64,000 bases of DNA from Candidatus Binataceae bacterium (lineage in GTDB: Bacteria; Desulfobacterota; Binatia; Binatales; Binataceae): contig JASHPB010000098.1 in assembly GCA_030038355.1 (NCBI GenBank), positions 586 to 64,585 on the forward strand. Reading direction: 5' to 3'. Made by a program: the position numbers and the translations under genes. Position 1 is the first letter of the stretch. Every line of letters begins with the position of its first letter. Of the stretch, positions 43,828 through 46,088 are shown in pieces. The notes beneath the pieces are model-generated. The model saw only the letters and a list, made by a program, of their open reading frames with translations, searched no databases and was not told the DNA's origin.

Positions 43828-44787
43828 GTGCCCCGCGTCTCGGTAATTATCCCCGCTTACAACGCCGCCGCGACTATCGCCGCAACCGTCGAAAGCGTTC
43901 TGGCGCAGTCGCATCGCGACTTCGAGATTATCGCAGTCGATGACGGCTCGACCGATCGCACGCGCGAGATCCTCGCCCGATTCGGCAATCGCGTACGGCT
44001 CATCGAGCAACACAACAGCGGCCCGGCGCGGGCGCGCAACGTTGGCGCTCGTGCGTCCTCGGGAGATTTGCTCGCATTCCTCGATGCCGACGATCTGTGG
44101 CGTCCCACGATGCTCGAGCGCGCCGTGGCGGCGCTGGATTCTGCTCTGTCCGCGACTCTCGTTTACTTCAACGCGCTGATTGCCGATAGCGAAGGGGTCG
44201 AGCTCGGAACATCACTGGTCGGTGGCGGATTCGATCATGCGCCTTCACTTAACGAACTGCTGACAAAGCTATGGCCGATCATGCCGAGCGCAGCGGTCGT
44301 GCGTCGCGCCGCCTACGAACGATGCGGTGGCTATCGCGACGAGCTCAAGGGCGCGAGCTTTCGCTTCGAGGACACTGACTTCTCGATTCGCGTGCGCGAG
44401 CAGGGCCCTTTCATTTATATCGCCGAGCCGCTCGTCGTGTGGCGCTTCGCGTGGTTTCCGAACAAGTTGAAGAAACTGCCCGACTACTCGAAGGCGCTGC
44501 ACGTCTTCGAGCCCTACTTGCAGGAGCACTACGGTGTGTCGGCGCGGCCGCTGGTAGAAGCGCGGCTGCGCGCGCCGCGCAGTATTCTTGCCAATATCGG
44601 GCTCAAGGCTCTCCGCGAGGGCGACCGTGCGCGCGCTCGCGCCGCGTTTGCGCGCGCGATCAAGGTTGATCCGTATCGTCTTAAGAACTACCTGAGGTTG
44701 ATGCGCACGTATCTGCCGTATGCCCTCGCGCAGCGGCTCTCGGGGACAGGTAATCGCGCGCCGGCGAAAAGCGCGCCCACGAATTGA
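43828..44787 (+). CDS. Family 2 glycosyltransferase (GT-A fold) with C-terminal TPR-like tail
   Basis: 319 aa. [37 protein letters not shown], DxD motif FLDADDL. GTG start with GAGGAG upstream. Confidence 0.85.
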
Positions 44788-44834
44788 TCGAATCGGCGAA
44801 CGAATCGAATAGGAATGATCGGAGGCTTTCTTTG

Positions 44835-46088
44835 ATGAGGGTGATAGTAGCGGGTGGGGACGGTTACCTCGGATGGCCGCAGGCGATGTACCTGTCGCGG
44901 CGCGATTACGAAGTCTGCGTGGTCGACAATTTTTGCCGCCGCACCTGGGATATAGAATGCGGCACAGACTCGCTGGTACCGATTTGGCCGCTCCAGGAGC
45001 GCGTGGCCGCGTGGCGCGAGCGGACCGGCAAAACTATCGACCTCGCGATTGGCGACCTGACCGACTACGGCTTTATCAGCACACTCGTGCGCGATTTCCA
45101 TCCCGATGCGATCGTTCACTACGGCGAGCAGCGCAGTGCGCCGTTCTCGATGATCGATCGGCGCCACGCCGTGCTGACGCAGGTGAACAATGTCGTCGGC
45201 AACCTGAACCTCGTGTACGCGATCAAGGAAACCAATCCCGACATTCACCTGGTCAAGCTCGGCACGATGGGCGAGTACGGAACGCCGAATATCGATATCG
45301 AGGAAGGTTTCATCGAGATCACGCACAACGGCCGCACCGACACGCTGCCGTATCCGAAGCAGCCGGGCTCGTTCTATCACCTGTCGAAGGTTCACGATTC
45401 GCACAATATCCAGTTCGTCTGCAAAATCTGGGGACTGCGCGCGACCGATCTCAACCAGGGCGTGGTCTACGGCGTCGAAACCGACGAAACGAAACTCGAC
45501 GAGCGCCTCGCGACGCGCTTCGACTACGACGGAATATGGGGCACTGTTCTGAATCGCTTCTGTATCGAGGCCGCGATCGGTCATCCACTGACCGTGCACG
45601 GCAAGGGCGGGCAGACGCGCGGCTACCTGAATATCCGCGACACGATGCGATGCATCGAGCTGGCGCTGGAGCATCCGGCGAAACACGGCGAGTACCGCGT
45701 CTTCAACCAGTTCACCGAGTAGTTCGTCGTTTCCGAACTCGCGCAGCTAATCAAGGAAGCGGCGGTACACAAAGGCATCAAGGTCGAGATTCGGAGCATC
45801 GCCGATCCCCGCGTCGAGGCCGAGACTCATTACTACAACGCCAGGCACACCAAGCTGATCGACCTCGGCCTCAAGCCGCACATGCTGTCAGAGACCCTGA
45901 TCGATTCGATCTTCGACACCGTCGAGCAGCATAAGCATCGCGTGAAGCTCGATCGTATCGCGTCTCTCGTCAATTGGCGCAACGCCAGCAACCAGGTCGG
46001 CTACGGCAGCGTATCATCGAGGCCGGAAGAGGAGCGCAAACCGCTGAAAGCGGTGGCCGGCACGCGTGGCGGCTCGCGCCGCCGCTAA
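44835..46088 (+). pseudogene. sqdB: UDP-sulfoquinovose synthase (SqdB/SQD1) with in-frame TAG at 45720-45722
   Basis: From memory, its string is near-colinear with plant SQD1 and cyanobacterial SqdB ([90 protein letters not shown]). The match continues after the stop in the same frame (..[46 protein letters not shown]..), and the TAG replaces the Gln of FNQFTEQF. RBS GGAGG before ATG 44835. Confidence 0.7.

Follow-up and report, generated by a model that had tools for sequence, protein, structure and literature searches.

What does a heterotrophic soil bacterium do with activated sulfoquinovose, and is the enzyme that makes it still intact? Both questions are raised by a stretch of 64,000 nucleotides from a Candidatus Binataceae bacterium (assembly GCA_030038355.1, contig JASHPB010000098.1, positions 586 to 64,585 of the forward strand; hereafter the window, which has a G+C content of 60% and zero ambiguous bases). 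Here sqdB, the gene for uridine diphosphate (UDP)-sulfoquinovose synthase, directly follows a gene for a family-2 glycosyltransferase (GT2) and carries an in-frame amber codon. Binatia are abundant uncultured bacteria of soil and peat and are not known as phototrophic, and the transferases of the established sulfolipid pathways belong to other CAZy families: SqdX/SQD2 to GT4 and SqdD to GT8. As the best explanation of the locus as a whole, we lean towards a two-gene module of the Binatia that would deliver sulfoquinovose to an acceptor other than diacylglycerol and that a recent C-to-T change has broken in this genome.

Judged by its sequence, the reading frame at 44835..46088 (plus strand) is clearly an orthologue of sqdB/SQD1. 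It runs over 417 codons from an ATG at 44835 to a TAA at 46086-46088, is interrupted by a single internal stop at codon 296, and is preceded by a Shine-Dalgarno sequence, GGAGG, which can be read directly at 44821-44825 (plus strand), 9 nt before the ATG. With the stop masked, the translation matches Arabidopsis SQD1 (PDB 1qrr) in phmmer over residues 2-383 with E=2.7e-171, and BLASTP aligns the two proteins with 62% identity over 381 aa and 0 gaps; a match at E~1e-171 rules out chance. The motifs of the extended short-chain dehydrogenase/reductase (SDR) family, GGDGYLG, GTMGEYG and YHLSK, are identical or nearly identical to the aligned SQD1 residues, and the catalytic roles of the residues within them (Thr; Tyr, Lys and the neighbouring His) are known from SQD1. 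A preliminary description of this DNA, made without database searches, had called the frame unmistakable, and the end-to-end alignment bears this out. The nearest loci in other genomes (L001-L004; 93% protein identity, about 87% DNA identity) encode an intact SqdB of 417 aa, and a basic C-terminal extension of 34 residues is common to the Binatia relatives.

The GT2 gene upstream is at 43828..44787 (plus strand, GTG start) and encodes 319 aa; its position, strand and family and the gap of 47 nt to sqdB on the same strand are as first described. But is it a partner of sqdB or a chance neighbour? For both genes, Candidatus Binatus and Binataceae metagenome-assembled genomes (MAGs) and soil metagenomes supply the top protein matches. 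We collected all obtainable loci with a GT2 orthologue, at 67-93% identity (L001-L005, L091, L094-L098 and L100), and in 12 of these 12 Binatia loci sqdB directly follows the GT2 gene on the same strand. The spacers measure 47, 30 and 53 nt, and in L096 the two open reading frames (ORFs) overlap by 4 nt. The flanks of the pair vary: two amidases and a TenA gene in L001, PPDK and DUF4410 in L003, a sigma-54 activator in L005, L091, L094 and L095, cytochrome oxidase genes COX1/COX2 in L100, and a sulfotransferase with another GT2 in L096. The pairing of GT2 and sqdB is thus real, and the possibility, left open at first, that the pair is not conserved and that the GT2 belongs with the amidases upstream is ruled out by the other upstream genes in L003, L095, L096 and L100. 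A profile search of genome contigs with the GT2 alignment mainly detected the generic N-terminal GT2 motifs: among the 80 matches listed, 79 were unrelated GT2s and L005 was the sole true orthologue.

Phylogeny, which had been proposed as a check, agrees with synteny. In a neighbour-joining tree of 15 members of the GT2 subfamily, all 200 bootstraps group the eight sqdB-linked sequences in a single clade, apart from the paralogues. The latter are 39-58% identical, share the same C-terminal tail and are surrounded by sulfotransferases, methyltransferases, a GT4 and Kdo/WaaP-type kinases; sqdB-like DNA was absent from the paralogue loci even at E<=1. The pair also has a conserved 5' region (43690..43827, plus strand), which begins where synteny with L001 resumes, holds a GAGGAG at 43810-43815 before the GTG, and would serve as promoter and leader. 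The last ~110 nt before the GT2 start are conserved in the window, L001, L003, L004 and L098 despite the different upstream gene in L003, which indicates that the pair travels with its own 5' region. Scans of this leader gave no Rfam family and no sigma-70 consensus match, and a promoter/terminator scan was unhelpful.

A sigma-54-dependent activator gene (bacterial enhancer-binding protein) stands directly upstream of the pair in L005 (4932-5822) and in L094/L095 (4451-5635), farther upstream in L100 (1958-3181), and a few kb away in other loci (L001 12014-13627, L085 9530-10756). This hints at sigma-54 control of the module. The pair of the window has no adjoining gene of this type.

What kind of enzyme is the GT2? 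Its Pfam assignment (PF00535, 123.9 bits against a cut-off of 23.3) points to an inverting transferase of the GT-A fold, and its DXD motif, LDADD at residues 85-89, is invariant or nearly so in the subfamily alignment. An AlphaFold2 model built on a 14-sequence alignment (pLDDT 84.8, pTM 0.84) has a GT-A core followed by helical hairpins at residues 223-304. The C-terminal tail had been called TPR-like, which holds for its shape but not for its sequence: the best TPR profile, PF07719 (TPR_2), reached E=0.0041 and 17.6 bits, below its cut-off of 27. In a sequence profile search of the PDB, the top match is the second GT2 domain of the E. coli K4 chondroitin polymerase (K4CP; E=1.4e-46, residues 2-199), and a PglI-like beta-1,3-glucosyltransferase (AvpGT) aligns to residues 4-227. 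ArnC and dolichol-phosphate-mannose synthase match the nucleotide-binding half alone (residues 2-110, E=1e-10). Foldseek comparison of the model with the PDB returns a Leptospira glycosyltransferase (6p61), WrtF, K4CP, CgT, SpsA, AvpGT, TarS and TarP, with a probability of 1.00 for SpsA, K4CP, TarS, TarP and AvpGT. Of these matches, K4CP, the PglI-like enzyme, TarS and TarP use oligosaccharides or polymers as acceptors. The protein has no predicted transmembrane segment (maximum 19-residue hydropathy 1.54), and its tail, with 18 Lys/Arg against 6 Asp/Glu (net +12), would suit docking on an anionic membrane or a sulfated glycan. Taken together, the GT2 is a putative soluble or peripheral UDP-sulfoquinovose:acceptor beta-sulfoquinovosyltransferase. 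The predicted anomer follows from the mechanism: GT2 enzymes invert the anomeric configuration, and from a UDP-alpha-sulfoquinovose donor a beta-sulfoquinovoside is expected.

The genes around the pair in other Binatia suggest where such a residue may go. Behind the pair in L094 and L095, and also in L091, stand two convergent genes for GT2s of this subfamily, 39-41% identical to the GT2 of the window over the full length including the tail, and three to four for PF00685 sulfotransferases. Downstream of sqdB in L005 there is at least one GT2 together with sulfotransferase-like DNA. L096, from a Binataceae MAG, has the order sulfotransferase, GT2, GT2, sqdB, MatE transporter and two PMT_2 (GT-C) genes, and in L092 and L093, whose SqdB is 69-70% identical, sqdB lies within polysaccharide-type clusters. 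These contexts look like envelope-glycan assembly rather than a two-step lipid pathway. The preliminary description had stressed that the partner is a GT2 and not a GT4 (SqdX) or GT8 (SqdD), and indeed the sole glycosyltransferase gene next to sqdB is a GT2: by Pfam annotation of the neighbouring genes, no GT4 or GT8 adjoins sqdB in the contexts examined, and a tblastn search of the 64-kb window with a Binatia GT4 query, though not with an authentic SqdX or SqdD, found no GT4. Its further suggestion of an acceptor other than diacylglycerol is favoured, short of proof, by the cluster context, the GT-A fold and the glycan-acting solved relatives. In the window the pair stands alone, with neither MatE nor PMT_2 found; this genome and its closest relatives have lost the linkage to the sulfotransferase cluster.

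Two further observations concern the relatives. In L092 (6259-7215) and L093 (6218-7159), a second SDR gene of the epimerase/dehydratase type directly follows sqdB, with YdjC and GT21/GT2 genes nearby in the former and DegT aminotransferase, NeuB, CTP_transf_3 cytidylyltransferase and GT2 genes in the latter, which suggests that UDP-sulfoquinovose may be further modified in these lineages. In Candidatus Binatus soli (L085-L087), a GT2 of the same subfamily, 58% identical, lies by a block of COX1/COX2 and sigma-54 activator genes as in L100, with two sulfotransferases upstream and without sqdB; this locus may record the loss or replacement of sqdB in another lineage.

How does the module compare with known systems? 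The synthase itself is of a familiar type. With Arabidopsis SQD1 and cyanobacterial SqdB (1qrr, 1i24) it shares, at 62% identity, the motifs GGDGYxGW, GTMGEYG, YHLSK and FNQFTEQF; it differs in the TAG at codon 296, the basic extension of 34 residues and the GT2 partner in place of SQD2/SqdX. Sulfolipid operons pair sqdB with sqdX in cyanobacteria or comprise sqdBDC and sqdA in Rhodobacter and Sinorhizobium (PMC13436972; bioRxiv 10.1101/2022.08.18.504050). The Binatia module has the same first enzyme and likewise couples it to a glycosyltransferase in one operon, but its transferase is an inverting GT-A enzyme of family GT2 and not a retaining GT4 or GT8, so that a beta-sulfoquinovoside is expected, whereas sulfoquinovosyl diacylglycerol (SQDG) is alpha-linked. 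The clusters of sister lineages, moreover, hold sulfotransferases, GT2s, MatE and PMT_2, without lipid-pathway genes. Another point of reference is the agl1-agl4 locus of Sulfolobus acidocaldarius, where the UDP-sulfoquinovose synthase Agl3 is encoded beside a membrane-bound transferase predicted to add sulfoquinovose to the N-glycan (PMC4388408), in which this sugar is beta1-3 linked (PMC8993221). A UDP-sulfoquinovose synthase beside a glycosyltransferase is common to both loci, and the beta1-3 linkage fits an inverting enzyme. The differences are that the Sulfolobus system belongs to an archaeon, that Agl3 has only about 40% identity to SQD1 while the Binatia enzyme is of the SQD1/SqdB type, and that Agl1 is described as membrane-bound while the Binatia GT2 has no transmembrane segment. 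Counterparts of the sugar-activation genes agl2 and agl4 are missing next to the pair: glucokinase and pyrophosphorylase genes were absent beside it in the window, L001-L005 and L094-L100. With K4CP (2z86/2z87; Foldseek E about 1e-15) the GT2 shares an LDxDD motif and the GT-A core, but K4CP is a two-domain polymerase and the Binatia enzyme a single-domain protein with an unrelated helical tail, at 26-29% identity over the Foldseek columns. The second GT2 domain of K4CP presumably binds UDP-glucuronic acid, which like UDP-sulfoquinovose is a UDP-hexose with an anionic substituent at C6, although donor specificity is unreadable from such a match.

A recent review treats sulfoquinovose as the headgroup of phototroph sulfolipids (PMC13436972), and the only non-lipid conjugates that we found described are archaeal N-glycans (PMC4388408, PMC8993221). 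Within a search of incomplete coverage, there was no report of Binatia with sulfoquinovose or of sqdB with a family-2 transferase, and none of sulfoquinovose in bacterial lipopolysaccharide, capsule, extracellular polysaccharide or S-layer glycans. For the Binatia we propose the following. SqdB would make UDP-sulfoquinovose from UDP-glucose and sulfite, by the chemistry of its family and in keeping with its identity to SQD1 and its intact motifs. The GT2, encoded upstream and presumably co-transcribed, would take this nucleotide sugar as its donor, as linkage, cluster context and fold suggest, and would attach sulfoquinovose by a beta-linkage to an acceptor other than diacylglycerol, for which a lipid-linked or polymeric glycan of the envelope is the most probable candidate. 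In sister lineages, further GT2s of this subfamily would assemble the glycan, and sulfotransferases of the 3'-phosphoadenosine-5'-phosphosulfate type would sulfate it. In the genome of the window, if the base call is right, the change of Gln296 to TAG would cost SqdB its last 121 residues and would have switched the pathway off very recently.

What, then, is the amber codon? The premature TAG lies at 45720-45722 (plus strand), at codon 296 of 417, and removes 121 residues, of which 87 align with SQD1. As the preliminary description had it, the codon falls on the Gln of FNQFTE-Q-F in SQD1, and orthologues have CAG here; since L001-L004 all read CAG, a single C-to-T transition accounts for it. 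TAG is the ordinary terminator of many window genes with good coding statistics, among them the amidase at 42005..43402, which ends at TAG after 465 aa, the same length as its L001 orthologue, and this makes recoding very unlikely. Organism-wide recoding of TAG is ruled out by these genes, and ARAGORN found no tRNA gene in the 64-kb window. An internal restart that would yield a split enzyme is likewise ruled out, as the next in-frame ATG (45882) opens only 68 aa. A search of metagenome contigs for the same TAG allele gave 0 matches, with little power, because the CAG control found just 3 contigs. Of the initial alternatives, a fresh inactivation and a wrong base call, both survive, recoding is excluded, and the sequence does not settle the choice between them. 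About 25 further genes of the window cover their Pfam models end to end with no sign of a frameshift, so that the assembly looks clean and not generally error-prone.

Disrupted genes occur in the relatives as well. The sqdB gene of L005 (7340-7390; GTDB MAG MFD05513.bin.2.169, Binatus) has a 1-nt frameshift that splits the tblastn match over two frames. This is probably an artefact of long-read assembly; should it be real, sqdB would have been disrupted a second time in Binatus, independently of the window. In L088, of a similar assembly type, SecA is spread over six ORFs, and the gene call cuts the GT2 orthologue of L091 short.

If the stop were old, the codons behind it should have drifted. 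They have not: purifying selection on the 121 codons that follow is still strong, and any relaxation is weakly indicated at best. In pairwise Nei-Gojobori comparisons of the window with L001, L003 and L004, dN/dS is 0.04-0.05 for codons 1-295 and 0.08-0.11 for codons 297-417 (dS 0.4-0.7), and among the intact relatives themselves the 3' part gives 0.04-0.05. Assigned to branches of the trio of window, L001 and L003, the codon changes on the window branch number 34 synonymous and 3 nonsynonymous upstream of the stop, compared with 11 and 7, respectively, downstream of it, and all seven downstream replacements are conservative; omega is thus ~0.2 after the stop against ~0.03 before. In Fisher tests, the 3' part of sqdB on the window branch differs from the 5' part on that branch (p=0.0095) and from the corresponding stretch on the other two branches (p=0.037). 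Had the 3' part been neutral along the whole terminal branch, ~35 replacements would be expected by our estimate (275 nonsynonymous sites, branch dS about 0.13-0.15), and 7 were observed. The GT2 gene, with 41 synonymous and 8 nonsynonymous changes on the same branch, is still constrained. This constraint after the stop means that the TAG is either very recent or an error of base call or consensus; by these counts the stop would date to roughly the last 15% of the terminal branch, or not be real. We judge a real, recent nonsense mutation the likelier case, if by no means a safe one, and give an artefact or minor allele at 45720 a substantial chance that falls short of even. Of less consequence than the module, and ordinary in itself, the amber codon is either a mistake in the sequence or the sign of a module caught in the course of being lost from one lineage; the latter would fit the GT2 loci of B. 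soli that lack an adjoining sqdB.

How well does the proposed two-gene module hold up? Some points weigh against it. The sole ground for the donor specificity of the GT2 is gene linkage. The top NCBIfam model for SqdB, the UDP-sulfoquinovose synthase equivalog NF041015, scores 488.8 bits (model positions 1-372 of 384, query with X at the stop), below its cut-off of 575; this shortfall concerns the threshold of one model, and the stronger match to SQD1 argues that the model is tuned to another subgroup. An sqdX or sqdD gene may lie elsewhere in the genome, the search having covered the 64-kb window. A sulfotransferase, a flippase, an initiating transferase and a further glycosyltransferase are all absent from that window, and the nonsynonymous excess after the stop amounts to 7 against 3 events in a region that is more variable in the relatives too. 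If the product were instead a sulfoquinovosyl lipid, beta-linked to diacylglycerol or of another kind, the GT2 would be a third, non-homologous replacement of SqdX and SqdD. All characterised bacterial uses of sqdB do lead to SQDG (PMC13436972, and general knowledge), a tail of net charge +12 could dock on an anionic membrane, and the solitary pair of the window and its closest relatives resembles a minimal two-step lipid pathway. We nevertheless consider such a lipid unlikely, because the nearest solved relatives of the GT2 act on glycans or polymers and are not lipid glycosyltransferases, other Binatia pairs lie in clusters of multiple glycosyltransferases and sulfotransferases with MatE and PMT_2, as is typical of envelope-glycan assembly, and an inverting GT2 would yield the beta anomer, unlike natural alpha-SQDG. 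Less probable again is an ArnC/DPM1-like route, in which sulfoquinovose would be loaded onto undecaprenyl phosphate, flipped and, once in the periplasm, handed by a GT-C enzyme to lipid A, protein or glycan. The MatE and two PMT_2 (ArnT/PMT-like) genes right after sqdB in L096 would suit it, as would the presence of ArnC and dolichol-phosphate-mannose synthase among the sequence matches, but these two cover only residues 2-110, whereas K4CP and PglI types reach into the acceptor half with E values down to 1e-46; transmembrane helices are missing, and PMT_2 was seen in just one examined locus.

That GT2 and sqdB might be neighbours without a functional link, given how common GT2 genes are, is very improbable in view of same-strand adjacency in all 12 loci over 67-93% GT2 identity and several flanking contexts, the fully supported clade and the overlapping ORFs of L096. 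The serious competitor concerns the stop: the TAG would stem from an error in sequencing, assembly or consensus calling, or from a minor allele taken up into the MAG, with sqdB intact and working and the rest of the module as proposed. We hold this to be a real possibility, though one we would not bet on. A one-base change is all it requires; the 121 codons behind it are still in frame, end at the same stop as the orthologues and evolve under strong constraint; the GT2 gene, too, is undamaged and constrained; and public long-read Binatia assemblies do carry errors, as in sqdB of L005 and SecA of L088. Against it speak the full-length state of the Pfam-checked window genes, the rarity of consensus substitution errors relative to indels, the mild nonsynonymous enrichment after the stop and the two structural changes that flank the pair. 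Readthrough or recoding by a suppressor tRNA, pyrrolysine or a near-cognate tRNA-Gln, with full-length SqdB still made, would have in its favour that the residue at stake, Gln, is the one that a supE-type suppressor or such a tRNA-Gln inserts, and that the downstream sequence is intact. We regard it as highly improbable: TAG ends many window genes at the positions of their orthologues, the window has no tRNA gene, all relatives have CAG, and the low-power contig search did not recover the TAG allele.

What would the two-gene module mean? The sugar-activation enzyme is known; new are the dedicated transferase clade and, probably, the class of product. Conserved as it is, and associated in sister lineages with sulfotransferase-rich clusters, the module suggests that these heterotrophs of the soil put UDP-sulfoquinovose to another use. 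We tentatively suggest that Binatia make an envelope glycoconjugate that bears beta-sulfoquinovose, added by the dedicated GT2 clade, and O-sulfated sugars, the work of the co-clustered sulfotransferases; the odds of this being right we put somewhat below even. If true, this would be the first bacterial sulfoquinovose conjugate other than a diacylglycerol lipid and the first GT2 sulfoquinovosyltransferase, a new family of such transferases, and it would supply the soil sulfur cycle with sulfoquinovose from organisms other than phototrophs, adding both a source and a sink of this sugar in the environment. The monophyletic GT2 clade is a concrete candidate enzyme that can be cloned and assayed, even if the sqdB copy of the window may be dead.

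The surroundings of the pair have been rearranged on both sides. By blastn the window is collinear with L001 over 36927-43423, 43690-46097 and 50161-50890. At the 5' side, it lacks the TenA/haem-oxygenase-like gene and the 79-codon ORF that lie between the second amidase and the GT2 in L001 (6492-7862), and about 266 bp of unrelated sequence (43424-43689) replaces them. At the 3' side, an insert of 4.06 kb (4,063 bp, 46098..50160) without counterpart in the closest relatives sits exactly between the sqdB stop and a convergent methyltransferase gene. It carries two PhyH dioxygenase genes (46085..47131 and 46929..47810, both on the minus strand), a TetR regulator, a CsoR/RcnR-type metal repressor (48598..48867) and a 264-aa ORF without Pfam match, and the stop codon of the first PhyH gene overlaps that of sqdB. 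The insert is a mark of rearrangement at the 3' end of sqdB and lies outside the pathway. The loss of TenA, the 4-kb insertion, the unlinking from the sulfotransferase cluster and the TAG together fit a module in decay, or one that this lineage can do without.

The methyltransferase beyond the insert (50163..50906, minus strand) is S-adenosylmethionine-dependent and TylM1/DesVI-like (3pfg, E=3e-48), of the family of nucleoside diphosphate (NDP)-aminosugar N,N-dimethyltransferases, which normally N,N-dimethylate NDP-3-amino sugars. It is 86% identical to its L001 counterpart and is the convergent neighbour of sqdB in L001, L003, L004 and L098, its ORF beginning 9 nt past the end of the sqdB ORF in L001 and L004; beside sqdB it is absent in L005, L095 and L096. 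We considered it as a third member of the module and rejected it: it is confined to the closest clade and, in the window, lies 4 kb from sqdB.

Next to the GT2 region, on its upstream side, are two tandem paralogues with the amidase signature (PF01425; ~40600-41977 and 42005-43402, plus strand), in the arrangement seen in L001; each has about 67-73% DNA identity to the L001 counterpart of the other. Farther downstream, and unrelated to GT2-sqdB, a run of genes resembling steroid or aromatic-ring degradation (52316-60294, plus strand) comprises a KshA-type Rieske oxygenase (52316..53437), a LuxR-type regulator, an acyl-CoA dehydrogenase, an SDR and two large FAD_binding_2 flavoproteins (KstD/fumarate-reductase-like). 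At the other end of the window, two adjoining genes for family-III CoA-transferases (12748-15242, minus strand) have a third-position G+C of 0.54-0.58 against 0.70-0.80 around them and may be a recent acquisition.

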